Positions 39,016 through 50,708 of a stretch of 50,708 bases of DNA are shown here, piece by piece. The notes below the pieces were generated by a model. That model did no database searches. It was not told the origin of the DNA and was given only the letters and a program-made list of their open reading frames with translations. Source of the stretch: Candidatus Woesearchaeota archaeon (lineage in GTDB: Archaea; Nanobdellota; Nanobdellia; Woesearchaeales; ARS49); NCBI GenBank assembly GCA_016203305.1, contig JACQMY010000039.1, positions 1 to 50,708 on the forward strand. The letters are read 5' to 3'. The position numbers and the translations under genes are program-made. The number at the start of each line of letters is the position of its first letter. Positions within the stretch are counted from its first letter, which is position 1.

Positions 39016-39674
39016 ACGCGCAGAGATTTGCCCTCAGCAACGAACAATGCATGAAACTCGTTAAACAAAGCAGACCGTTCTTCGTTATTCGTAATTCGTT
39101 GTTCGAATTCGCCATAAAACAAACCCTGCAGTTCATGATAATCAACATCAGCAGAACAAATATCCAGATTACTACAAATTCGTTTGGTGTAAGCATCAAC
39201 AACAAAAACAGGACGTCTCCCAGCATAGAGCAACATGCTATCAGCAGTCTCAGGACCAACACCCCACAAAGAAAGAAGCTCTTCTCGAATTTCGTTTGTA
39301 ACACGCAGCCTGTCGAATAACTTGCTCATTGAACCATGCTTTTTCAGGACATACTGCGCGAACAACTTGAGCTTTTTCGCTTTTTGACGGAAATAACCAC
39401 TGCTCCTTATCAAAGAAGCAAGCCTTCGCTGATTAACACCAGAGAGCTTTTCTAAATCAACCAAACCAGCACCAAATAATGCATCAAGCGCCTTTTCAAC
39501 ATTCTTCCAGCTCGTATTCTGAGTCAAGACAGCACCGATGCAAATCTCCAACAGCTCTTCTTCAGACAACATCCGAGAACCATTCGAAGAATGGTAACCA
39601 AACTGCCTTGTAGGCCACCAACCCTGCGGGCCATGCCTGCGCAACAAAACACCATACAATTGAATGAGTTTCAT
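38997..39674 (-). CDS. Endonuclease III-related HhH-GPD protein
   Basis: GPQGWWP, GAVLTQNTSWKNV, GVGPETADSMLLY, VVDAYTKR. Confidence 0.9.
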   Translation of the reverse strand: MKLIQLYGVLLRRHGPQGWWPTRQFGYHSSNGSRMLSEEELLEICIGAVLTQNTSWKNVEKALDALFGAGLVDLEKLSGVNQRRLASLIRSSGYFRQKAKKLKLFAQYVLKKHGSMSKLFDRLRVTNEIREELLSLWGVGPETADSMLLYAGRRPVFVVDAYTKRICSNLDICSADVDYHELQGLFYGEFEQRITNNEERSALFNEFHALFVAEGKSLRVQPKRS

Positions 39675-40756
39675 CTTAACGATTTCAGCACTTTGTCTAA
39701 CGCTTTGGAAGTAACAGTCCAATCAAACTCCTTCCGAACCTTCTGCTGCAACAATTTCGCCATTCTTTTTGCCTTAACAGGATTTTTCAACACCCAGTTA
39801 ATCCGTTCACGCAAAGCAAGAACGTCCTTTGGTTTGATCAAAAAACCAGTCTTATCATCAATGATCTCGCGCGTGCCGCCAACATCTGTTGCTATCACTG
39901 GAACACCAACAGCACCCGCCTCCAAAACAGAAGTCGGCAAACCCTCAGCATAAGAAGGATTCACAAAAACATCCGAATAAGAAAGAACCTTCCTAATGCC
40001 AGCAGAATCCTGCTCGCCCAAGAAAACAACATTCCTGCCAGCAGCCGATCTAAGCTCACGCGCATAATTACCACTGCCAATAATGAGAACTTTCACGTTC
40101 TCCATTTCAGCAGTTGCTTCCACTAAATCCTGAACACCCTTCGCCTCAATCAAACGGCCAACAAATGAAATAACTTTTTGCCTGTACGGCTTGGTTGTTT
40201 TTACCGGCTTGAAGAATGAGGAATCAATCGCATTATGCAAAACAATAGTCTTGCGCTTACACAAATGTCTTGCAAACTTAGCAGAAGCATCACTAACACC
40301 CGCGACCGCACGTGCACGATGCACAACAAAATAGCCAATCGTATGATCATACAACCAGTTCACAGCGTAGACGAATGGCTTGCTGCCTGTGTGCATAGTC
40401 CCATGCTCGATATGCAAATGCGGAATCTTGTTTTTCCTGGCAAACCGAGCACCAACAAAAGACAACGTGAAGAAACGCGTATGCGTTATGACCGCATCAT
40501 AAGTTCCCAAAGTTTGCAAGAATTTGAAAACGCCAGGCAGGACAACAGGATAAGTTCCACCCAACGCATTCCAAGTTGGAACGCGAAAAACATGCATGCC
40601 ACGATAGGATTCCTTTTCTTTCATGCCACGAAGCAAAGCAGTAACAACATCAACCTTCCAACCATGCTTCACCAAACGAACACCAGTTTCTTCAGCATAC
40701 TTTTCCACGCCGCCACGATGCGGCCAAAAATACGGAGCGAAAATCAAGATTTTCAT
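39671..40756 (-). CDS. GT4 glycosyltransferase
   Basis: GGVE, FVGRL..KG, PSYAEGLPTSVLEA. Confidence 0.92.
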   Translation of the reverse strand: MKILIFAPYFWPHRGGVEKYAEETGVRLVKHGWKVDVVTALLRGMKEKESYRGMHVFRVPTWNALGGTYPVVLPGVFKFLQTLGTYDAVITHTRFFTLSFVGARFARKNKIPHLHIEHGTMHTGSKPFVYAVNWLYDHTIGYFVVHRARAVAGVSDASAKFARHLCKRKTIVLHNAIDSSFFKPVKTTKPYRQKVISFVGRLIEAKGVQDLVEATAEMENVKVLIIGSGNYARELRSAAGRNVVFLGEQDSAGIRKVLSYSDVFVNPSYAEGLPTSVLEAGAVGVPVIATDVGGTREIIDDKTGFLIKPKDVLALRERINWVLKNPVKAKRMAKLLQQKVRKEFDWTVTSKALDKVLKSLR

Positions 40757-40760
40757 TTTG

Positions 40761-40875
40761 TCACGGACCATCGGTTCCGCTTCTTCGCTTCGCTCGATCG
40801 CTCATAAAATTGCGATGGTCCGTGAGCACACTCGGAATTCCACCCAATTGATCATCAATTTCGGTGGAATTCCGA
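40761..40875 (+). mobile_element. Two-hairpin REP/MITE-like element, copy 1
   Basis: TCACGGACCATCG..CGATGGTCCGTGA-GCACAC-TCGGAATTCCACC..GGTGGAATTCCGA. Confidence 0.7.
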
Positions 40876-41195
40876 TGTTTTTTAAGCGCAAACTCGCGCA
40901 CCAATCTTGTCGTGTTACGCTCGAGATTCTCCAAGCGCAAATAAATACGAAACACCAGATAAAATAACAAAATGATTGAAAGATAAACAATAAGGTCAAC
41001 ACCCCGCTCAACACCAAAAGGCTTGCTAACACCAGATGCAAGGCCAGGCAAAAAAGCAATTACGCTTAATCCACCCCAAATCACCAGCCAAAACACGAGC
41101 CACTGACCGGTCAGACGACGTTCACGGAAGAGCGCAAAAGCCCTCAAAATACCGAAAACAGTCACAAGAATTGCAATAATCTGGATCGGAGTCAT
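40761..41195 (-). CDS. DUF2304 membrane protein; C-terminus extended by a hairpin element
   Basis: GVERGVDLIVY..TRLVREFAL. Confidence 0.85.
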   Translation of the reverse strand: MTPIQIIAILVTVFGILRAFALFRERRLTGQWLVFWLVIWGGLSVIAFLPGLASGVSKPFGVERGVDLIVYLSIILLFYLVFRIYLRLENLERNTTRLVREFALKKHRNSTEIDDQLGGIPSVLTDHRNFMSDRAKRRSGTDGP

Positions 41196-41199
41196 TTTG

Positions 41200-41880
41200 T
41201 TACCTCATGAATTTATGCAAAAGCATTTTGTATAAAATTCTAAACGCGTTCCACGAACTCTGACCATGCTTCTTCGAATACTCTGTATACTTGATAACAA
41301 CTGGAACTTCCTTATAACGCAACTGTTTCTTCCTTATTTCATCAATAAACTCAGACGCGTGCTCCATGCGGTCAGCACGCAATTCTATGGTCTGTGCAGC
41401 ATGCCGAGACATCGCGCGAAAACCATTATGCGCATCAGTCATTTTTACACCATACAAAAGCCAAATAAAAAAAATGCCGCCCTTCAAGAACAACTTGCGC
41501 ACAAATGGAACACCCGCTTTACCTTTCAAAAACCTACTGCCCAAAGCAATGTCAGCCTTGCCATCAACAACCGGCTTCAGCATTGCGGGCAAGTCCTCAA
41601 CACGATGCTGGCCATCAGCATCAAAAGTCACTATAAACTCCGCACCCTGCTGCAAAGCAAAATCAATACCGGTCTTCAACGAAGCACCCTGGCCCCTATT
41701 AATAATGTGGCGCAACGCCTGCGCGCCATGCTGTTCTGCCATTTGGAACGTTTTGTCCCTAGAACCATCATCAACAACCACAACGTTCTGATAACCCGCC
41801 TCCTTGAGCCCATCAACTACCTTGCCAATCGCATGCTCCTCATTATATGCTGCAATCACAATCCAAGCCCCCTGTTCCAT
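41200..41880 (-). CDS. GT2 (DPM synthase-like) glycosyltransferase
   Basis: AAYNE, VVVDDGS, NRGQG, FDADGQH, TDAHNGFR. Confidence 0.93.
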   Translation of the reverse strand: MEQGAWIVIAAYNEEHAIGKVVDGLKEAGYQNVVVVDDGSRDKTFQMAEQHGAQALRHIINRGQGASLKTGIDFALQQGAEFIVTFDADGQHRVEDLPAMLKPVVDGKADIALGSRFLKGKAGVPFVRKLFLKGGIFFIWLLYGVKMTDAHNGFRAMSRHAAQTIELRADRMEHASEFIDEIRKKQLRYKEVPVVIKYTEYSKKHGQSSWNAFRILYKMLLHKFMR

Positions 41881-41962
41881 ATCGACGATAATACAAACAC
41901 CCTTTTAAAAGGTTTATGAACTCCAGAACTAGTTTTATATAGGTTGTTCCGAAGATACATTT

Positions 41963-42769
41963 ATGCGTCTGCACGCACCAAATTTCAACCTTACACACAC
42001 CCTGGACAGCGGACAATTCTTCAGATACGACAAGATAGGAGAATGGTATTACTGCCAAGAAAGGGATGTTTTGTTCAAAATAAAGCAAAATTCAGATTGG
42101 CTAGAGTTTGAAGGAACAACAGAAGAACACGTAAAACGCCTCTTTGGACTACAGTGCGATTACGAACAAATCATAAAAGAACTCTCTAAAGACAAAACGC
42201 TCCTGCCCGCAATCAAAAAATACAAAGGACTCCGCGTGATGCAAAGAGACCCATGGGAAACCCTCGTAAGCTTTCAATGCAGCATAATGAGCAATATCAA
42301 AAAAATAAAGTTAAACATGAGCTGCCTTGCAAAAGAGTTTGGAACTCCAATCAAGCTTGATAAATATGCATCGCACACTTTTCCAAAACCAGGAATGCTG
42401 CATGACTTGGAAAAAATCAAAAGGTGCGCAACAGGATTCAGAGCAAAATACATACACCAAGCAAACAGCCTAGTTGATGACGAATACTTTGAAAAATTAA
42501 GAACGAAAAAATATGCTGAAGCACACGAACAACTAATGGAACTCCCAGGAGTAGCCGAAAAAGTCGCAGACTGCATCTGCATATTCGCACTCTGCAAAAC
42601 AGAAGCATTCCCAGTAGACGTCTGGATTGAACGAATCATGAAACAAACCTATCCAGAAACAAAAAAAATGAAAAACAAACAAATACGACAGTTTGCGTCT
42701 GACAGATGGGGAAAAAATGCAGGATATGCGCAGCAGTTCTTATATCACTATGCGAGGCACAACACATGA
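41963..42769 (+). CDS. ogg1: 8-oxoguanine DNA glycosylase (OGG1 type)
   Basis: TLDSGQFFR, QRDPWETLVSF, GFRAKYI, GVAEKVADC, FPVDVW, AGYAQQFL. Confidence 0.9.
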   Translation: MRLHAPNFNLTHTLDSGQFFRYDKIGEWYYCQERDVLFKIKQNSDWLEFEGTTEEHVKRLFGLQCDYEQIIKELSKDKTLLPAIKKYKGLRVMQRDPWETLVSFQCSIMSNIKKIKLNMSCLAKEFGTPIKLDKYASHTFPKPGMLHDLEKIKRCATGFRAKYIHQANSLVDDEYFEKLRTKKYAEAHEQLMELPGVAEKVADCICIFALCKTEAFPVDVWIERIMKQTYPETKKMKNKQIRQFASDRWGKNAGYAQQFLYHYARHNT

Positions 42770-43134
42770 AAGCACTCTCACTCAAACAACCATGGGCAGA
42801 ACTGGTTGTTTCAGGAAGAAAAACAATTGAGTTAAGAAACTGGGAAACCAGGTTTCGGGGAGAATTCCTAGTCCACGCATCAAAAAACCCAAACAAAAAA
42901 GCAATGGAACTCCTCGGCTACAAAGAACTGCCACTAGGCAGCATAGTAGGAAAGGCAACACTGGTTGACGTCAAACACTATAAGAACATGGACGAGTTCA
43001 ATTCGGATGCAAACAAACACTTCGCGACACCAGGATGGTACGATGACAAAGCAAAAGGATTTATCCTAAAAAATGCAAGCCGCTTAGAACCGAAACCACT
43101 AAAAGGCAAGCTCAACTTCTTTGAAGTAGGATGA
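42766..43134 (+). CDS. ASCH-domain protein
   Basis: ALSLKQPWAELVVSGRKTIELR..LVHAS. Confidence 0.92.
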   Translation: MKALSLKQPWAELVVSGRKTIELRNWETRFRGEFLVHASKNPNKKAMELLGYKELPLGSIVGKATLVDVKHYKNMDEFNSDANKHFATPGWYDDKAKGFILKNASRLEPKPLKGKLNFFEVG

Positions 43135-43592
43135 ACAATGTTAAAATCAAACAAACCAACAAAGGCAAAGGAATTTTTGCAGCATATGAACTGCAAAAAG
43201 AAACAAAGATTCTAAAATTTGAACGCAACTTTGTCACCCTGCCAAATACTGTGACCTTGCGCATTGATGAACACAAACACCAATTGAGCACAAATCCCCA
43301 CTCAGCTGAAAACTACATCAACCACGCCTGCGATCCCAATGCGTACATTGACTTCAACGACCTAAGTCTTCGCGCACTAAGAAAAATCAAGCTAGAAGAA
43401 GAAATCACCTACAACTACTTCACCAGCGATTGGGACAACGAAGACCCATTCGACTGCAAATGTGGATCTCCATGTTGCAAAAAGCTAATTAATGGATTCA
43501 AGCACCTCTCTCTCACTGAAAAGAAAAAACTTGCGCCACTCCTCTCGCCATTCCTAAAGAAAAAACTTGGAGAGGAACTCACACTCCTATGA
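43131..43592 (+). CDS. SET-domain protein with post-SET
   Basis: KGKGIFA, YINHACDPN, EEITYNY, CKCGSPCC. Confidence 0.92.
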   Translation: MNNVKIKQTNKGKGIFAAYELQKETKILKFERNFVTLPNTVTLRIDEHKHQLSTNPHSAENYINHACDPNAYIDFNDLSLRALRKIKLEEEITYNYFTSDWDNEDPFDCKCGSPCCKKLINGFKHLSLTEKKKLAPLLSPFLKKKLGEELTLL

Positions 43593-44242
43593 CACCAACA
43601 CATGACCAAATTGATCGAGTACTAAACATCCTGGTAAAGGAAGAAGGCAGCGCGACAATGCTCGGCAGAATGGGAAAAAAATACGAGCCATTCAAAGTCT
43701 TAATTTCAACCATACTTTCTGCGCGCGCAAAAGACGAAGTAACTGAGGTAGTCGCAGAAAAGCTGTTTGAAAAATATGACACAGCGGAAAAACTTGCCAA
43801 TGCTGACAAGAGAGAAGTGATCAGAATAATAAGAAAAATAGGATTCTACAACGCAAAAAGCAAAAACGTAATCAACACGGCAAAAATGCTTCTAGAAAAG
43901 TTCAACGGAAAAGTGCCAGACAAGCTAGAACAATTGATAGAACTCCCAGGCGTTGGAAGAAAAGTAGCAAACTGCGTTCTCGTCTACGCGTACAAACAAG
44001 ACGCGATACCAACTGACACCCATGTCCACAGAATAAGCAACAGACTAGGATGGGTGAAAACAAAACAACCAGAAGAAACAGAACAAGCACTCGAAAAACT
44101 CGTCCCAAAAAAACACTGGCAGCTCATCAATGACACCTTTGTAACACACGGCAAAACAATTTGCGTTCCAATCTCCCCATTCTGCAGCAAGTGCCCAATC
44201 TACAGATATTGTCAAAAGCAAGAGGTAACAAAAAGTAGATAA
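43589..44242 (+). CDS. nth: Endonuclease III
   Basis: LISTILSA, LPGVGRKVAN, DTHVHRI, C-x6-C-x2-C-x5-C FeS motif. Confidence 0.95.
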   Translation: MTPTHDQIDRVLNILVKEEGSATMLGRMGKKYEPFKVLISTILSARAKDEVTEVVAEKLFEKYDTAEKLANADKREVIRIIRKIGFYNAKSKNVINTAKMLLEKFNGKVPDKLEQLIELPGVGRKVANCVLVYAYKQDAIPTDTHVHRISNRLGWVKTKQPEETEQALEKLVPKKHWQLINDTFVTHGKTICVPISPFCSKCPIYRYCQKQEVTKSR

Positions 44243-44265
44243 ACACGTTGAACGCAAGGAGGAAC

Positions 44266-44661
44266 ATGGGGAATATAGTCAAAGTTGCAGTCCTGCCAAT
44301 AGTTGATAAAAGAGTTCTAATGTGCCGCAAACTAGGAGTTGACGCGCTCATCAACCTTGGCGGAAAAGTGGAAAATGAAGAAACTGATGAACAGTGCGCA
44401 GAACGAGAAACTCTGGAAGAAGCACAGTGTGGAGTAAAGGATCTTGTCCATTACACCACTGTCACAGCGCCGAGAGTCGATGAACCAAGCTCAACAATAG
44501 AACTCCGCTGTTATTTTGGCCAACTGGATGGAACACCCAAACCAAGAGAAGGTGACAAGATAATAGGCTTTGAATACATCGACAGAACATACAATGCTAG
44601 CAAACTTCCGCCGGCAATGCGAAAAGTCTTTGAGAAACTGGTATCAGACGGGCACCTCTAG
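44266..44661 (+). CDS. Nudix hydrolase (MutT-like)
   Basis: GGKVENEETDEQCAERETLEE; AGGAGG SD. Confidence 0.85.
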   Translation: MGNIVKVAVLPIVDKRVLMCRKLGVDALINLGGKVENEETDEQCAERETLEEAQCGVKDLVHYTTVTAPRVDEPSSTIELRCYFGQLDGTPKPREGDKIIGFEYIDRTYNASKLPPAMRKVFEKLVSDGHL

Positions 44662-44754
44662 TAAAAGACACAATTTTTAGGACAATAGTTGTGTCTTTTA
44701 ATAGATTAGAACAGCGGATTTGCGTTTCAATAATAAATGTCCTGTTCTAATCTA
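44662..44754. repeat. Twin perfect inverted repeats (possible terminator or repeat element)
   Basis: TAAAAGACACAA/TTGTGTCTTTTA and TAGATTAGAACAG/CTGTTCTAATCTA. Confidence 0.65.
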
Positions 44755-44792
44755 GCAAAAACCATTTAAACAACACCAACACTCTTCTGACA

Positions 44793-45362
44793 ATGGTCAA
44801 CATGATCAAAATTGTGATTGCTGCAATAGTGCTGCTTACCATAATAGGCTATGCCCTGCTTGGCAAAAACGTCAAACGTGCCATAATCTTCAGAAGCGCG
44901 AAAACAAAAGCTTCAGAAAGTCTCGTCCTAGAAGTTGTAACTGGAATAATAACACTAGCAACAGCGCTCGCATATTATTTGCGCAACCGGCCAGAAGCAA
45001 CCTGGTGGATGGGAGCAGGCATTGTTCTACTTATCCTGGGAGGCATTGTACAACTCATTGCCCGCAAACACCTCTACGAAGACAAAACCTTCGAACACAG
45101 ACTACTGAGCGAGTTCAGCGCAGCACAAACAGGCATATACCGAAAACTCCGCTACCCAGGCAAAACAAGCACCCTGCTACTAACACTCGGATTCTGCCTA
45201 GCAATGGGAAGCACGTGGAGCATCGCAGTATGGGCAGCACTATTCCTACCGAGCACTCTCTACCGCATTAGTCAAGAAGAACAAACACTCCAAGACAAGT
45301 TCGGAGAACGATGGATGAACTACCAAGAAGAAAGCAAAAGAATAATCCCAGGAATATTCTAG
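44793..45362 (+). CDS. ICMT/PEMT-family membrane methyltransferase
   Basis: TGIYRKLRYP, EEQTL..KFG..Y....RIIPGIF. Confidence 0.8.
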   Translation: MVNMIKIVIAAIVLLTIIGYALLGKNVKRAIIFRSAKTKASESLVLEVVTGIITLATALAYYLRNRPEATWWMGAGIVLLILGGIVQLIARKHLYEDKTFEHRLLSEFSAAQTGIYRKLRYPGKTSTLLLTLGFCLAMGSTWSIAVWAALFLPSTLYRISQEEQTLQDKFGERWMNYQEESKRIIPGIF

Positions 45363-45439
45363 GCTTTAGGTTGTGGGGTGTAGGTATTAGGGCGAAGGCG
45401 GAAGGACGAAGGTTGTAGGTGTTAGGTTGTAGGACGAAG
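45363..45439 (+). repeat. Degenerate 7-mer tract (11 units)
   Basis: gctttag gttgtgg ggtgtag gtattag ggcgaag gcggaag gacgaag gttgtag gtgttag gttgtag gacgaag. Confidence 0.85.
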
Positions 45440-45486
45440 AACACTTGACCAAAACATATATAAACACACTTTCTTGCAACAAAAAC

Positions 45487-46419
45487 ATGCCAAAAGAGGA
45501 ACCACGCGCGGCACGAGTGTTCAAAACACTAAACGAATTCATCACACTGCTAGGCAACCTATTCAAATTCACAATCCTTGTCTTCTTCACACTATTCATA
45601 CTAAGCGCACTGGCATCAAGCATGCCTAAACTTGCAAAAGGAAACGTCGCAGTCATACCAATCAACGGACTCATCGCCACGGAAAGCGACGACTTTATGC
45701 AGGGAACAGACAGCCAAGACATTGCCGAACTCATCGAAGAAGCAAATGAAAATGAAGACATCAAAGCAATATTGTTCGACATCGATAGCCCAGGAGGAAC
45801 GCCCGTTGCAACAGACCAAATAGCCCAAGCAATCAAAGAAATCAACAAAACAACAATTGCGGTCATCGGAGAAACAGGAGCCAGCGGAGCATACTGGATT
45901 GCAACAGCAGCAAACAAAATCTACGCCAACAGAATGAGCGTCACAGGAAGCATAGGAGTAACTTCAAGCAGACTGGAATTCGGAGGCTTGCTCACAGACT
46001 ACAATATCACATATCGCAGACTGGTAGCTGGTAAGTATAAAGACCTCGGAACTCGATGGCGAGCAATGACAAGCGAAGAACAACAACTCTACCAAACGAT
46101 CCTTGATGATCTGCATGATGAGTTCATAACAACAGTATCAGAAAACAGAAAACTAGAACGAGAAAAAGTAAAAGCGCTTGCGACAGGATTCGTCTACCTG
46201 GGCAGCGAAGCAAAAGAACTCGGGCTGGTAGATGAACTAGGCGGGAAAAAAGAAGCGCTGAAATACTTGGAACAAACACTCAACATCACGGCAGAACCAG
46301 TCGACTATGAAAAACAAAAAACCTTCTTCGAAGAATTATCAGGCGTCACGAGCAACGCATTCTACAATCTCGGAAGAGGAATGACAAACCAGCAAGCACC
46401 AGCCATTACCTTAACGTGA
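45487..46419 (+). CDS. sppA: Signal peptide peptidase SppA
   Basis: IDSPGG, ASGAYWIA, TGSIGV, GKYKD, GLVDELG. Confidence 0.93.
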   Translation: MPKEEPRAARVFKTLNEFITLLGNLFKFTILVFFTLFILSALASSMPKLAKGNVAVIPINGLIATESDDFMQGTDSQDIAELIEEANENEDIKAILFDIDSPGGTPVATDQIAQAIKEINKTTIAVIGETGASGAYWIATAANKIYANRMSVTGSIGVTSSRLEFGGLLTDYNITYRRLVAGKYKDLGTRWRAMTSEEQQLYQTILDDLHDEFITTVSENRKLEREKVKALATGFVYLGSEAKELGLVDELGGKKEALKYLEQTLNITAEPVDYEKQKTFFEELSGVTSNAFYNLGRGMTNQQAPAITLT

Positions 46420-46804
46420 TCTTCGCCTGAGAACCAACACCAACACTATTCTTCCCTGCCAAACCCGCATTAACTTCCAAAACATAACGTGCAGGAGGGG
46501 AAACATACAACCGACACGGATCAGACTTGCATGGAACGGCTGTCTGAACATCCACAACGGTTCCATTCTCAGAAATAAAAATCATGTCAAGCGAAATCAA
46601 AGTGTTCTTCATCCAAAAAGAACGCTGCTGCTCGCCGTCAAAAACAAACAACATCCCTTGATAGTCATGTAAAGACTCGCGAAACATCAAACCTTTTGCT
46701 TTCTCATCAGCAGTACGTGCAAGCTCAACGTCAAAAGAAGCACCATCAAAAACAACCTTGGACCCAGAGCATGCAATCAAAAATAACAACAATAATCGCT
46801 TCAC
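46406..46804 (-). CDS. DUF192 protein with lipobox
   Basis: MKRLLLLFLIAC; GLMFR, FWMKNT..LDMIF, YVLEVNAG. Confidence 0.9.
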   Translation of the reverse strand: MKRLLLLFLIACSGSKVVFDGASFDVELARTADEKAKGLMFRESLHDYQGMLFVFDGEQQRSFWMKNTLISLDMIFISENGTVVDVQTAVPCKSDPCRLYVSPPARYVLEVNAGLAGKNSVGVGSQAKITLR

Positions 46805-47502
46805 TTACCCAACCCCATCTTACTCTTCCAAATAGGAACCTCATAAGCCATGGGCTCTTTTTCCAGTTTTAGAATACCTGCGTCTATCAAGTCATCAATG
46901 TTAACCATCGCAGTACGCTCATCAGCAATCCTCGGACAGGCAGTATTAACCCAGAAATCAATGAACGAAAAATTCTCAAACTGACGCATGTCAAGCTCGT
47001 CACACGCAAAAATATAGTACTCCTTATCAACATTCTTTGCCAATTCAAACGCGCGCACCAAGTTCTTCTGACCAATCTTCGTGCTAACAATAATGCCAAC
47101 TCTTTTCGCATGAAGGTATTTTGAAAGCTCGCCTGCCTTCCGTCCAGCATGAAGTATCGCTGCTTTATCACTCAACAAACCAAGCTCCTGCGTCGAAGGA
47201 TTCCACAACCAAACCTCCTGACCAGTCTTTAACGCAACCTGAATGGGATGAAACTCGCCAGAACCAACAAACAACCAAGCATCAACCTTGTCCTTAATCT
47301 TCTCAGCCTCAGAAGCATTACAGCCAAGAACCTGGCCCCCAATAATCGCAGTGCGCAATTGTTCCAACACATCACCAATCTTGTGAGCATGCTGAATGGT
47401 GGTAACAACACCCCAACGCTGCTTTGGAAGCATGGCCAACTTGCCCTGGGGCAAACGCACATCCAAAGTGCTCTTTGCATGCACGTGCATAACCTTTATC
47501 AT
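46801..47502 (-). CDS. dph2: Diphthamide biosynthesis protein Dph2
   Basis: TTIQH, GQVLGC, GSGEFH, VSTKIGQ, NTACPRI. Confidence 0.88.
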   Translation of the reverse strand: MIKVMHVHAKSTLDVRLPQGKLAMLPKQRWGVVTTIQHAHKIGDVLEQLRTAIIGGQVLGCNASEAEKIKDKVDAWLFVGSGEFHPIQVALKTGQEVWLWNPSTQELGLLSDKAAILHAGRKAGELSKYLHAKRVGIIVSTKIGQKNLVRAFELAKNVDKEYYIFACDELDMRQFENFSFIDFWVNTACPRIADERTAMVNIDDLIDAGILKLEKEPMAYEVPIWKSKMGLGK

Positions 47503-47578
47503 GGTACAACGATCCAGATAACGATTTAAAAAACTATTGCTTGTATCTTCTAATGAAATGCTTCAAAGACTTGACATG

Positions 47579-47747
47579 TCGGAATGCCACCAGTCTGATA
47601 TGACTGGTGGTTTTGCTTGCGCAAACCACAATAGGGTGGCATTCCGAGCATGCTCAAGAACCACCGCTATTTTCTATGAGCACTTATAGTGCCCATCATG
47701 CCACCGGTGTTGAGCGAGCGCAGCGAGCGATCACCGGTGGTTCTTGA
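47579..47747 (-). mobile_element. Two-hairpin REP/MITE-like element, copy 2 (inverted)
   Basis: TCGGAATGCCACC..GGTGGCATTCCGA-GCATGC-TCAAGAACCACCG..CGGTGGTTCTTGA. Confidence 0.7.
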
Positions 47748-47804
47748 CATTTTGAACATGCCGTATTTTTTCCCATGCTGCCGAGCATATTCACGCTGCC
47801 CTCT

Positions 47805-50708
47805 TCATTTACTAGGATGTTTAGAACTTTGTCTATTCCTGCGTGGCTTACCATTCCACATAAAAAGTTGAGCGGGCCTTCCAGTGGTATTAGTTCTAGC
47901 CGTTGCGTGTTTCCCAGAATGAACCCTTTTGAACTTCAGCGTAGCTAGCAAGACAAGCACTGCAAAAACAAGTCCAACAGACCGCACATTCCCCAACCAA
48001 TCGCGAAACACCCAAACAGGATTTGCAGAAGACCCCTGCGCATCCCTTTCTTTCATGGCAGCAACAATTGACTCCTGACGGTTGGCTATTGGCTGTCGGA
48101 CATTGGCTATTGGTGGTTGGCTAGTAGCTATTGGCTGCTTGCCAGTAGTTGGTAGTGGGTAGTTTGTAGTTTGTGAAAGCTTTGCCAAAGCCAAAGACAC
48201 CTGCCTGTTGAAAACAACCAACACCTGAACACGCAAGTCAGAAACACCATCACCAGACACATCAACATCCTTAGACTGACCAGCAGACAACACAAACTCC
48301 TGCAGAACACTCTGAACGCTCAACAACACACGATCATACTCAACGTCCAAAACAGTCAACAAGTGCGCCCCCCCATTAACATCAAAAATCACACTATCCA
48401 ACTCGCCCAAATAAGGAGTAACAAAAGCATCAGACGTCATTACAAACTCTCTACCAACCTGAACCGGAGCAGACACTATAGGACGTGACGCACCACCACC
48501 GCCACCCCCTCCAGAAGGAACCCCTGGAGTTGGCGGAACAACAGCAACATTAACCACCGTAAGCTCAGAAACAACAACAGAACCATTGCCACCAGACAAG
48601 TTCTGGAACGAAACGTTCACAGAGTTGTTTAACGTTCCGCTTGCGCCTGCACTCACGTTCACAGTGATGTTGACAGTCGTGCTACTGCCTGAAGAAAGAT
48701 TGCCCAAGAACCAAGTATTGTTGCCAACACTGGGAACAGGCTGAGAATTGTTGAACACCACACTACTTGGATACAATTCAACCAAAGTAACGTTGAATGC
48801 AGTCTCGCTGCCTGTGTTGTTGATCGTGACAGTGTAAGATAATGCAGAACCATTATTCACAGGATCAGGACTATCCGACTTAGACACGCTAATCGTAACA
48901 TTACCCAACTCACCAGCAGCATAACTCGTGAAGCTAGAAACGTTAAAGACATACACGCCGCCAGTAAAGCTCACCTCAACACACTGCGGAGGATTACACT
49001 GTTCAAACACGCCGTCATCGTTGAAATCAACACGCGGACGAGGGTCGGTGAAAGACAAACCACGCAATGTGATCTGAGCAGACGTGTTCAGGAAGGACAA
49101 GTTGGTGCTGTTCACAAAAGTATTATTGCTGCTGACGTTGAACTTTGCACGAGTTATACTGTGAGCTCCCGACATGGTGAAATTGCCGAAAAATAGACTG
49201 CCATTACGAGTGAAAAAAGTCGTGCTGTTAAATTCTGCCAAAGTATTGACGCCTGTAGAAGCCCAAACAGGCGCGACAACATCCAGCAGACCAATCTGAA
49301 GAACACTCAAGTTCATCACAGTCTCAACCAAAGTCAAACCACTCGAGTTACCAAGATAAGTCAATGTGCTATTGACAATGCGAGCATTAGTAACACCCTG
49401 CGCATACAAACTATGCACCTCCCCTGTCCCATTTGTCCGAACAATAATATTGGAAAGAGTAATCGCTGTTGCATTGGTAAGATTAATCCCAAGAGTCTGG
49501 CTACCAGAAACATTAACCGTAACATTCCTCAAAACAAAGTTAGTACCATTTTGAACTGTAATACCCGCGGCAAAAGGCCCATCAACAACCATTTGTATCG
49601 CACCCCCAAACCCATCACTGGCAGTATCAACAACCGAGAAAATCCACGCCCGCCAGTTTGATCCACTACCTGACAAAAGAACATTATTGTTCCCAAACAC
49701 TACACTAGTCGTGTTGCTAAACTCGACACCAGTATGGTTGCCAGAACTAGAAATCCCAGTGATATTCAACGTCATATTGCCAACAGTCACATTGCTCACA
49801 TTACGCACCAGAACACCAGTGCTCGCGCCATTCCCAGTCAAATTTATAGTGTTGTTATTGATAAAAACGTTCAAAGAATTGTTGACAACAAACCCGCGCA
49901 CGTTCTCACCAACAATCCCCCACATGGTGTTACCAAACGCTTGATTATCACTGCCCGAATCATCCCCATAAACATCCGCATTCACTTTGAGCAAGCTGCC
50001 ACCATCCATCGTATTACCACTGACAACAGAATCAGTGACGAACAACAATCTAATCCATCGCGCCCTATTGGTAGCAGAAGGATTATTGAACGTATTTAAC
50101 TGAACTGTCGGACCAGTGCTATTGACGACCTCCAACCCAGTATACAAGTTCAACGCAGTTCCAAACACAGTATTATTCGCTATCACAATCACTCCAGAAG
50201 AATTGATGAGAATTCCCATAACTGTCCCATCTGAACCGTTAGCAACCAAAATAATGCTCATATTTGTAATGCTGACATTCGTGCTATTGAAAACCTGCAT
50301 TCCAGTCGTAACATTCGACGCGTTCGCCTGAACAGTCGTATTCGTAATAACACTGTTCGACACGTTTGACACATTGATGCCTATCCCGAAATTACCATCT
50401 GTCGAGTTATCGATTACAACGCAGTTGCGAACAGTAACATTTGTACGACTAACTGCAAGTATCCCATACGTCCCATCCCCACCATCCTCATTCCAACGCA
50501 CAGCGAAACCGCCACAGTCAAGCACAACATTACTCGCAAGAATGTTGATCGCAGTAGAAGGACAAGTGATATTCTCAGTCAAAATCGTATCAGAAGCAAT
50601 ACTTAGCGGACAGTCTTCAACAATCAACACATTATTACTCAAAACAGTACTACCATCACTCGCATTCCGATTATCATTAGGAGTAACAGCAACAGACCAA
50701 TTATCACC
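47805..50708 (-). CDS. Large surface glycoprotein (parallel beta-helix, DUF11/Ig-like domain, Gly linker, C-terminal TM); 5' end lies outside the window
   Basis: Frame open to the window edge (GDNWSVAVTPND); many N-x-S/T sequons; KSDSPDPV..LSYTVTINNTG; GGGGGG linker; TM. Confidence 0.85.
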   Translation of the reverse strand, partial: GDNWSVAVTPNDNRNASDGSTVLSNNVLIVEDCPLSIASDTILTENITCPSTAINILASNVVLDCGGFAVRWNEDGGDGTYGILAVSRTNVTVRNCVVIDNSTDGNFGIGINVSNVSNSVITNTTVQANASNVTTGMQVFNSTNVSITNMSIILVANGSDGTVMGILINSSGVIVIANNTVFGTALNLYTGLEVVNSTGPTVQLNTFNNPSATNRARWIRLLFVTDSVVSGNTMDGGSLLKVNADVYGDDSGSDNQAFGNTMWGIVGENVRGFVVNNSLNVFINNNTINLTGNGASTGVLVRNVSNVTVGNMTLNITGISSSGNHTGVEFSNTTSVVFGNNNVLLSGSGSNWRAWIFSVVDTASDGFGGAIQMVVDGPFAAGITVQNGTNFVLRNVTVNVSGSQTLGINLTNATAITLSNIIVRTNGTGEVHSLYAQGVTNARIVNSTLTYLGNSSGLTLVETVMNLSVLQIGLLDVVAPVWASTGVNTLAEFNSTTFFTRNGSLFFGNFTMSGAHSITRAKFNVSSNNTFVNSTNLSFLNTSAQITLRGLSFTDPRPRVDFNDDGVFEQCNPPQCVEVSFTGGVYVFNVSSFTSYAAGELGNVTISVSKSDSPDPVNNGSALSYTVTINNTGSETAFNVTLVELYPSSVVFNNSQPVPSVGNNTWFLGNLSSGSSTTVNITVNVSAGASGTLNNSVNVSFQNLSGGNGSVVVSELTVVNVAVVPPTPGVPSGGGGGGGASRPIVSAPVQVGREFVMTSDAFVTPYLGELDSVIFDVNGGAHLLTVLDVEYDRVLLSVQSVLQEFVLSAGQSKDVDVSGDGVSDLRVQVLVVFNRQVSLALAKLSQTTNYPLPTTGKQPIATSQPPIANVRQPIANRQESIVAAMKERDAQGSSANPVWVFRDWLGNVRSVGLVFAVLVLLATLKFKRVHSGKHATARTNTTGRPAQLFMWNGKPRRNRQSSKHPSK

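Follow-up and report, generated by a model that had tools for sequence, protein, structure and literature searches.

We analysed a stretch of 50,708 nucleotides (contig JACQMY010000039.1, referred to as the window throughout) from the genome of a Woesearchaeota archaeon, and found that it carries two copies of a twin-hairpin element, in which two neighbouring stem-loops, hairpins A and B, are joined by a spacer of 6 nt. The stems vary in sequence among copies of the family to which these two belong while their Watson-Crick pairing is kept, and the dinucleotides at the two ends of nearly every element complement the four central bases of its own spacer; this complementarity between termini and spacer is new here and went unnoticed in the preliminary description of this DNA. 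With a probability of about one half, we read the family as non-autonomous mobile DNA that is defined by its hairpins and acts through them, in the manner of repetitive extragenic palindromic (REP) sequences, bacterial interspersed mosaic elements (BIMEs) or palindrome-associated transposable elements (PATEs). Mobility of this kind accounts for the copy number, the turnover between relatives, the lack of a wobble bias in the stems, the covariation of termini and spacer, the lack of a target duplication and the asymmetry of the target.

The host is a DPANN archaeon (Woesearchaeota) with a reduced genome. This genome, labelled G000, comprises 1.13 Mb in 40 contigs with a G+C content of 44-46%, and the window is its contig C22; groundwater metagenome runs contain the window's DNA. 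No RNA run was found to contain positions 40000-48000 of the window, which has no bearing on expression. Relatives were scanned twice, first in a set of 41 genomes and then in 77 genomes of the taxonomic family. The labels G001 and G002 denote genomes of the same genus, and G080 and G081 are near-identical sister species.

The boundaries of the elements, as set by comparisons of filled and empty sites, lie 2 nt outside the hairpins on each side (40759-40877 and 47577-47749). The two copies in the window are built as follows.

40759..40877, + strand: copy 1, twin-hairpin element of 119 nt, reading from A to B as TG + hairpin A + GCACAC + hairpin B + TG
40761..40825, + strand: hairpin A of copy 1, perfectly paired over 13 bp (40761-40773 / 40813-40825); its 39-nt loop contains a TCGCTTCGCTCG stretch
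40826..40831, + strand: spacer GCACAC of copy 1, whose core CACA reads as the reverse complement of TG+TG, the two termini joined
40832..40875, + strand: hairpin B of copy 1, perfectly paired over 13 bp (40832-40844 / 40863-40875); a small hairpin is nested in its loop
47577..47749, - strand: copy 2, twin-hairpin element of 173 nt, reading from A to B as TG + hairpin A + GCATGC + hairpin B + CA
47654..47747, - strand: hairpin A of copy 2, perfectly paired over 13 bp (47654-47666 / 47735-47747); its 68-nt loop contains nested hairpins
47648..47653, - strand: spacer GCATGC of copy 2, whose core CATG reads as the reverse complement of CA+TG, the two termini joined
47579..47647, - strand: hairpin B of copy 2, perfectly paired over 13 bp (47579-47591 / 47635-47647); its 43-nt loop contains two nested hairpins

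The preliminary description had reported a layout common to 40761-40875 and, inverted, to 47579-47747, and this layout can be read directly from the DNA. The arms of copy 1 are TCACGGACCATCG/CGATGGTCCGTGA in stem A and TCGGAATTCCACC/GGTGGAATTCCGA in stem B; in the inverted copy 2, stem B is TCGGAATGCCACC and stem A is TCAAGAACCACCG. Just as had been stated, the copies differ at three positions in stem A and at one in stem B, every difference is mirrored in the partner arm, and the loops are of unequal length and contain nested hairpins, with a TCGCT/CGCTC-rich stretch in both stem A loops. When the copies were folded as single-stranded DNA and compared with 200 shuffles each, copy 1 reached -32.3 kcal/mol (z -7.8) and copy 2 reached -48.9 kcal/mol (z -7.7), values that none of the 200 shuffles equalled in either case. 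The B half of copy 2 is 98% identical to a copy located elsewhere in the genome (G000:C12:15799-15890). Raised depth and apparent joints over 47476-47742 stem from other copies of the family, e.g., from the loop of this C12 copy, and an empty-site allele of the window copies was not present in the contigs from four DNA runs that we compared with the window.

A scan for perfect inverted repeats revealed many hairpins with the feet TCAAGAACC.. and TCGGAA.., often paired at a distance of 6 nt. The junction motif TGAGCRYRCTCGRRA occurs 16 times in G000, compared with a single match for the reversed motif that served as the control. It was found in 12 of the 41 relatives and in 34 of the 77 family genomes, with up to 15-16 copies per genome, and the controls of the latter scan gave two hits in total. 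Nine of the first 12 loci that were fetched possess the twin-hairpin layout (several of them cut off or nested); the other three, from the first scan of relatives (L003, L007 and L013), were discarded as chance matches in GC-rich coding DNA. For the copy statistics, 181 motif matches were reduced to 109 distinct complete copies, where the preliminary description had proposed a family on the strength of two. Another 49 matches lacked two parsable hairpins; these are nested forms, copies truncated at contig ends, or matches that arose by chance. Since the layout recurs in this manner, with 16 motif matches in G000 and 109 copies overall, the pair in the window is far beyond chance.

The element is present in 14 of the 15 genomes of one genus (g16), and the exact junction motif is missing from the same-genus genomes G001 and G002; G001 possesses a diverged copy in which the foot of hairpin B is altered on both arms (CAAGAA..TTCTTG). 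In a scan of one genome per species, for which we estimate about 35 chance matches to the motif pattern, hairpins were found, among the matches listed, only in records with Woesearchaeota or Nanoarchaeia titles. Four matches from outside the Woesearchaeota (bacterial or Aenigmatarchaeota titles) formed no hairpins when folded and were rejected, as was the one exact match in viral contigs, a chance hit in a coding sequence without hairpins. Motif matches often lie within about 130 nt of a contig end, which is as expected of repeats that break assemblies.

Each element is laid out as 5'-yG, hairpin A, a 6-nt spacer G-C-N3-N4-N5-C, hairpin B, and a terminal dinucleotide f1f2-3'. Hairpin A has the feet TCAAGAAC..GTTCTTGA and hairpin B the feet TCGGAA..TTCCGA, and the conserved parts are limited to these stem feet, the frame of the spacer and the termini. 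The copies are 52-218 nt long (median 108, n=109), and their loops measure between 3 nt and over 70 nt, often with further nested hairpins. The shortest copies consist of perfect stems of 8-10 bp with loops of 3-5 nt and no internal loop; since they do without them, the long nested loops of the window copies are dispensable cargo. In H/ACA guide RNAs, each hairpin is followed by an ACA box, and there is a K-turn or K-loop as well as an internal pocket for pseudouridylation; an archaeal RNA of this type was rejected as a candidate in view of the minimal copies.

Distal stem positions differ among the copies yet keep their Watson-Crick pairing. We assessed this position by position in the first 49 copies with 500 shuffles. 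Position 5 of hairpin A (GC 31, AT 6, CG 2) was paired in 39 of 39 cases with 32 in the best shuffle, and position 8 of hairpin B (CG 20, TA 18, GC 3) was paired in 41 of 42 cases with 28 in the best shuffle. When the 17 shortest copies were aligned with MAFFT, 99.4% of the cells were paired versus 91.0% upon shuffling (0/500 shuffles reached the observed value), pairing fell to 26-50% when the partners were slid against each other, and changes on both sides occurred in 9 of the 21 pairs. The 218 stems of the 109 copies contain 42 mismatches, of which 10 are G·T and 13 are A·C. Wobble pairs are therefore unfavoured, as expected from pairing at the level of DNA or from correction of one arm by the other, and not from an RNA read from one strand. 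The covariation of the stems thus points to DNA, not RNA.

Some copies carry additional modules. A GGGCT(G/A)AAGCC mini-hairpin is present in a loop of 11 of the 109 copies (ten times in hairpin B, once in hairpin A, and always in one orientation; e.g., G000:C3:27338, G000:C8:4333-4394, L062 and L034). It is the reverse complement of an end hairpin of the IS200-like insertion sequence (IS) resident in G000, and could represent either a nested module or a chance likeness. Small double hairpins with the feet CCAAGAAAA/CCCAGAAAA (or TCGCGAAAACGC and ACTTGACAACGC) are inserted within the 3' arm of hairpin A or the spacer of some copies (G000:C37:12750-12850, C8:5124-5413, L002 and G000:C21:6164-6226), so that hairpin modules nest in one another.

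The ends of the elements follow their spacers. The 5' dinucleotide (yG) complements spacer positions 2-3 (C-N3), and the 3' dinucleotide f1f2 complements positions 4-5 (N4-N5). Among the 109 copies, the base at -2 pairs with N3 in 106, the base at -1 with C2 in all 109, f1 with N5 in 108, and f2 with N4 in 108. Four types of N4N5 occur, each with its matching terminus (TG/CA, CA/TG, CG/CG and TA/TA), and T·A/C·G switches are seen at N3; at the positions that follow further out, pairing is seen in only 34 of the 109 copies. In the window, copy 1 combines TG...TG with the core CACA, and copy 2 combines TG...CA with the core CATG. Since the termini complement the four central bases of the spacer, folding would set the two ends of the element side by side. 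A single strand would form hairpin A, a bulged G, a central helix of 4 bp, a bulged C, and hairpin B; a nick in the central helix would fall at the point where the 5' and 3' ends of the element meet, and the flanking DNA would exit there. A bulge-helix-bulge intron was considered as well and rejected, its geometry being a misfit to bulges that are single-base and both on one strand.

Comparisons between and within genomes bear on the question of movement. Two copies of about 250 nt in G000, one at C37:12677-12900 and the other divided between two contig ends (start of C16, end of C34), are 98% identical and have unrelated flanks; the match between them extends 4 nt beyond hairpin A on the left and 10 nt beyond hairpin B on the right. 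When relatives were inspected for empty sites, six comparisons of filled and empty sites were obtained, and in each of them the insert comprises the hairpins and 4 further nt, any duplication being limited to one ambiguous base. Copy 1 of the window is missing in G001, and G000 has exactly 119 extra nt at this site (TG + 115 + TG). L037 is missing in G080, where the flanks are 89-97% identical, and removal of TG[hairpins]CA restores the G080 sequence but for one substitution. L031 is missing in G080, G003 and G078, all of which already have a TGTTTAAAAG-like right flank. L032 is present in G080 and missing in G003 and G076, where its place would be at a start codon; L039 is missing in G080 and G078; and L033 is missing in G080 and present in G082, the site being restored by removal of CG[hairpins]CA. 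Seven copies of G081 were tested against its sister species G080: three are common to both (L029, L032 and L040) and four are not. Among the relatives, the copy number ranges from 0 to 16. The 98% identical pair and the four of seven copies missing in the sister species point to recent movement. A duplication of ATG or TG at the target was rejected; it fits some copies and fails at L037 and in the GCGTGC class.

The target is asymmetric. The right flank has the consensus T-r-T-n-A-A in both main classes of copies, and the left flank is without a consensus. In the CA-ended class (n=67), T is found at f3 in 48 copies and at f5 in 56, and A at f7 in 48 and at f8 in 55. The element adjoins this motif on the motif's 5' side, and the motif resembles the element's own start, TGTCAA. 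Since gene starts such as TATGAA and ATGAAA fit the consensus, many copies are positioned 1-3 nt upstream of a start codon. Of 102 copies, 32 have the start of an open reading frame (ORF) of 50 codons or more within 15 nt of their B end, and 12 have one within that distance of their A end; in the first set (n=49), the respective numbers were 21 and 5. Downstream of the copies lie genes of unrelated function (RtcA-like, NrdR-like, Lrp-like, thioredoxin, ExoIII-like and PIN-like, named by reading their N-termini, the Pfam search of proteins having covered the window's genes). The bias towards start codons thus looks like the choice of a target combined with selection against intragenic hits, and not like a regulon. 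In G000, copies are found in tandem, divergent and convergent intergenic regions and in both orientations. Several left flanks contain a purine-rich stretch and an ATG; in these cases the insertion has separated a ribosome-binding site from the start codon it serves.

The window copies themselves are opposite in orientation relative to the flanking genes, which are co-directional.

39671..40756, - strand: family 4 glycosyltransferase gene, with its ATG 2 nt past the A end of copy 1
40761..41195, - strand: DUF2304 gene from the ORF list, Pfam match over residues 4-107 of 144
46801..47502, - strand: diphthamide-synthesis gene, an archaeal marker gene, which lies on the - strand downstream of copy 2 at a distance of 74 nt from its B end
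47805..50642, - strand: gene for a beta-helix/DUF11 surface-type protein of 945 residues, ending 55 nt before the A end of copy 2

The DUF2304 frame crosses all of copy 1, which adds about 37 codons, and ends at a TGA from the foot of stem A, 4 nt before the ATG of the next gene. In G001, the DUF2304 gene ends in an ATGA overlap with the next (glycosyltransferase) gene. The closest relatives of the diphthamide-synthesis protein are 70-82% identical and are found on records with Woesearchaeota or Nanoarchaeia titles.

How might such an element move? A nick-and-join reaction on single-stranded DNA would suit the folded geometry, and the internal 4-nt splint would define both ends in cis, similar to the guide sequences in the 'peel and paste' transposition of IS200/IS605 elements. 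A more specific proposal, to which we give a low probability, is that of a self-splinting single-strand element of a new kind, in which a freely evolvable 4-nt guide holds the ends as a nicked helix that is cut and joined by a protein family so far unrecognised as a transposase. This protein could be a housekeeping nuclease/ligase or topoisomerase of these reduced archaea, or be encoded by the organism on which the archaea live or by a virus; ends and target (5' of TGTCAA-like motifs) would then be set by pairing and a single nicking specificity, and no gene of the element would be needed.

Several observations weigh against mobile DNA of this type, and its weak points are the missing enzyme and the single-strand intermediate. 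From the anatomy alone we infer the single-strandedness, a circular or end-joined intermediate, and the chemistry of nicking and joining; a molecule with joined ends was not seen. In the minimum-energy folds of the window copies, stem B extends past the bulged C, and f3, the base after the element, complements N3 in 87 of the 109 copies, so that an extended stem B is an alternative pairing to the 2+2 splint. At the empty site of L039 in G080, a stretch of 17 nt matches the B arm and tail of the element at 13 positions and may be a remnant of it. Some of the empty sites could be precise deletions, given that hairpins flanked by short repeats are prone to slippage. One orthologous copy shows a single difference in about 64 nt compared with about 12% in its flanks, and such conservation could reflect a function for the host rather than selfish DNA. 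As to the enzyme, the genomes G081, G080 and G052 gave no match to Y1_Tnp, TnpB, Phage_integrase, rve, DDE_Tnp_1 or Resolvase, and near-identical multicopy protein genes above 83% identity are not present in G000.

The search for the enzyme also covered other families and arrangements. TnpB is missing from all five copy-rich genomes and Phage_integrase from three of the five. The three genomes G080, G081 and G052, which are 97-100% complete, gave no match to Phage_integrase, though all 14 control genomes match; they may be without a XerA-type recombinase, or theirs may be too diverged for detection. No matches were obtained to Y2_Tnp and Viral_Rep, for which the control genomes were equally silent, and the search for DDE enzymes covered the Pfam families rve and DDE_Tnp_1. 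Inverted copies bracket 2.5 kb of DNA at G000:C12:15760-18505; a composite transposon was rejected here, the ORFs having yielded a weak metallopeptidase hit and no recombinase. A search for a gene-carrying element, i.e., for family feet 0.2-6 kb apart, returned only noise. Candidates for the driver are a housekeeping enzyme, a protein family that has gone unrecognised, and an enzyme provided in trans. The enzyme that moves the elements is not the resident Y1 transposase of the IS200 type, for reasons given below.

The preliminary description had also offered a structured RNA family, and an RNA element that has spread through its usefulness, be it an mRNA stabiliser, a processing site, a terminator or a translation-control leader, is in our estimate an improbable explanation. 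It would be in keeping with the strong conservation of pairing through compensated changes, with the orthologous copy that is better conserved than its flanks, and with the orientation bias that arises where B ends abut start codons more often than A ends do. Moreover, copy 1 lies within an operon and must be transcribed, since its two genes overlap in G001. However, copies occur in both orientations relative to genes, the genes downstream of them are unrelated, their presence varies between sister species, and the near-equal counts of G·T and A·C in the stems disclose no preference for wobble pairs; the start-codon bias is explained by the asymmetric DNA target T-r-T-n-A-A. An Rfam family is not involved either: there was no match at E <= 1 between 40000 and 48500, and at gathering thresholds the whole window contains one tRNA only. 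Selection at the RNA level on where copies are tolerated is possible.

We regard it as unlikely that the family is a REP, REPIN (REP doublet forming a hairpin) or PATE-type element moved by a Y1 (HUH) transposase of the IS200/IS605 group, whether resident or supplied horizontally. In favour of such a link, each element has a hairpin near either end, generates no target duplication and has ends set by short complementary sequences, as IS200/IS605 elements do; the mini-hairpin present in the loops of 11 copies resembles the ends of the resident IS; and G000 does contain one IS200-like Y1_Tnp gene (G000:C4:15478-15837), which is intact with its HUH and Y motifs. The IS200-like element around it, L001 1277-1975 (G000:C4:15254-15952), is apparently intact and single-copy and encodes a Y1 transposase of 154 residues with HVH and Y..Q motifs. 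Its ends consist of a long nested left hairpin and a right hairpin, both built on GCGGGCTTTAGCCCGC, followed by (T)TCACGAGTT / ATTACGAGTT. These flanking GCGGGCTTTAGCCCGC hairpins are its own and in direct orientation, unlike the family, and no TC..GA family member lies next to this only Y1 gene of G000. Co-occurrence fails as well: Y1_Tnp is found in 14 of the 77 family genomes, namely in 8 of the 34 that bear the junction motif and in 6 of the 43 that do not, leaving 26 of the 34 motif-bearing genomes without it. Genus g16, with the element in 14 of 15 genomes, has Y1 in 0 of 15, and G080 and G081, with their recent turnover, have none. The copies carry no GTAG tag, and in the accessible part of one survey of Y1 proteins (PMC6006769) only the plain IS200 subclass is reported for Archaea. 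Hence, of the REP/REPIN- or miniature inverted-repeat transposable element (MITE)-like family that had been proposed, the structural conservation, the multiple copies and the insertion polymorphism stand, and the connection to IS200 or to a RAYT (REP-associated tyrosine transposase) does not, the only Y1 gene being flanked by different hairpins of its own. Similarly, the HUH-type mobilisation that had been suggested fits the anatomy insofar as nicking and joining of the HUH kind would suit it, but a HUH gene to drive it was not found.

Classical MITEs, or two adjacent ones, with the stems as terminal inverted repeats and a DDE transposase encoded elsewhere, are an equally doubtful source. Their size (52-218 nt here), intergenic location and high copy number would fit, the commonest class ends in 5'-TG...CA-3' as many DDE elements do, and a Woesearchaeal genome has one of the highest archaeal MITE densities, 105 per Mb, in the accessible part of a census (PMC11602168). 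Against such an origin, the six filled and empty sites disclosed no duplication past one ambiguous base, where MITEs would have one of 2-10 bp, other classes end in TG...TG, CG...CA or CG...TA with termini that follow the spacer and not each other, the inverted repeats are internal hairpins rather than the two ends of the unit, and rve and DDE_Tnp_1 are missing in G081, G080 and G052. A domesticated DNA site that serves the host, i.e., a cruciform or hairpin bound by a host protein, kept by selection and rarely copied, is likewise hard to maintain: foot sequences conserved across genera, the orthologous copy conserved above its flanks, the persistence of copies in 14 of the 15 g16 genomes and the lack of a transposase are set against a copy number that varies from 0 to 16 among relatives with no exact motif in G001 and G002, the difference in 4 of 7 copies between two near-identical species, and insertions in costly-looking places such as the tail of a gene or the gap between a ribosome-binding site and a start codon.

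Other structured repeats were observed in the course of this work. At 44662-44754 of the window, between two + strand genes, there is a second kind of twin hairpin with the feet TA(A/G)..(C/T)TA; its arms are TAAAAGACACAA/TTGTGTCTTTTA and, one base on, TAGATTAGAACAG/CTGTTCTAATCTA, and its DNA fold has a z of -3.2 (0/200 shuffles equal). At least eight more TAG..CTA-footed hairpins, twin or single, are present in G000 (e.g., C24:27532-27623, C26:23867-23955, C26:28681-28769 and C11:22250-22338). G000 also contains seven compact pairs of mini-hairpins of the form catg-TCGGAAATT-nnn-AATTTCCGA-tcacc-TCGGAATTGCATTACAATTCCGA (G000:C15:9015, C19:9215, C19:36637, C24:11486, C27:14301, C31:12932 and C32:997), which sit in intergenic DNA rich in GTAG/CTAC and GGATGAAGG/CCTTCATCC repeats. 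Arrays of 3-5 TC..GA hairpins occur at C9:19270-19460, C31:17420-17700, C32:880-1060, C12:490-640 and C7:9080-9290. Inverted repeats resembling the T-arm of tRNAs (GGTTCAAATCC..), spaced about 45-50 nt apart, were noted at G000:C1:26759-26832, C10:2956-3032, C24:65068-65138 and C25:22387-22458 and may represent pairs of convergent tRNA genes or a less ordinary arrangement; a copy of the family (G000:C2:48110-48254) begins directly after a tRNA-like 3' end. The - strand of G000:C19:47198-65524 is occupied by an ORF of about 6100 codons, whose internal repeats match a 506-residue ORF of C23 with 50-54% identity; the ORF encodes a giant protein of the surface type, as is typical of DPANN genomes.

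The genomes of DPANN archaea are very small, and mobile elements are considered to be scarce in them. The present family indicates that such small genomes carry dozens of structured repeats that move between sister species without a recognisable transposase, and its minimal unit of about 52 nt, with covarying termini and guide, could reveal how archaeal hairpin elements are cut and joined. The repeats break assemblies, create false N- or C-terminal extensions of ORFs, as for the DUF2304 gene of the window, and, where they lie between ribosome-binding sites and start codons, matter both for annotation and for thinking about gene expression. In the literature on repeats of Woesearchaeota and DPANN archaea, on MITEs, and on RAYT/REPIN systems in archaea, we found no description of the twin-hairpin family. 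The MITE census gives the Woesearchaeal genome its density of 105 per Mb with the families undescribed in its accessible part, and its supplementary tables may list such hairpins (PMC11602168); in the accessible part of the other survey, REP/RAYT systems are not reported in archaea (PMC6006769).

Compared with known systems, the family is set apart by its archaeal host, its internally splinted termini, its start-codon-like target and the lack of a recognisable transposase. Correia elements of Neisseria and the Rickettsia palindromic elements, bacterial MITEs with no known transposase, are, like the present family, small palindromic repeats that are sometimes located within reading frames or near gene starts. 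Correia elements duplicate a TA target and possess true terminal inverted repeats; the family described here has, in contrast, twin internal hairpins, no duplication, and termini that covary with the spacer. With the attC sites of integrons, it has in common a site folded from a single strand, a conserved foot, extrahelical bases, a variable stem sequence and a variable terminal structure. However, its foot is not RYYYAAC/GTTRRRY, its copies are scattered in both orientations instead of forming cassette arrays, and Phage_integrase is missing from G081, G080 and G052.

The REP sequences and BIMEs of enterobacteria and pseudomonads are likewise short, mostly intergenic palindromes of high copy number whose pairing is kept while their sequence drifts; their units alternate in orientation and are joined by fixed-length linkers, and they are tolerated in operons. 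BIMEs are bound by gyrase and IHF, and in REPIN/RAYT systems a single-copy RAYT (Y1 HUH) gene is flanked by inverted REP copies of the same family. The present family differs in being archaeal (DPANN), in having no RAYT gene flanked by its copies, in its nearly perfect stems of 8-20 bp with loops that can be long and nested, and in termini that pair with the linker between the hairpins. According to the accessible part of one study, a REP is an imperfect palindrome of 20-40 nt with a conserved GTAG (or CGTC) end tag (PMC3733652). The stems of the present family start with TCAAGAAC or TCGGAA and are flanked by yG and f1f2, so that neither the GTAG nor the CGTC tag is present.

The IS200/IS605 elements and the gene-less PATEs of Haloquadratum resemble the family in their end hairpins, the absence of a target duplication, the short specific insertion motif and the complementary guide sequences; in the present family, only 2 nt separate hairpin A from the 5' terminus and hairpin B from the 3' terminus. 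The ends of the family are dissimilar to those of the resident IS200-like element, and most host genomes are without Y1 or TnpB. Elements derived from IS200/IS605 insert 3' of a fixed tetra- or pentanucleotide on their left flank; here, the conserved target motif lies 3' of the element and not 5', and, in contrast to IS200/IS605 elements and PATEs, one internal stretch of 4 nt pairs with both termini.

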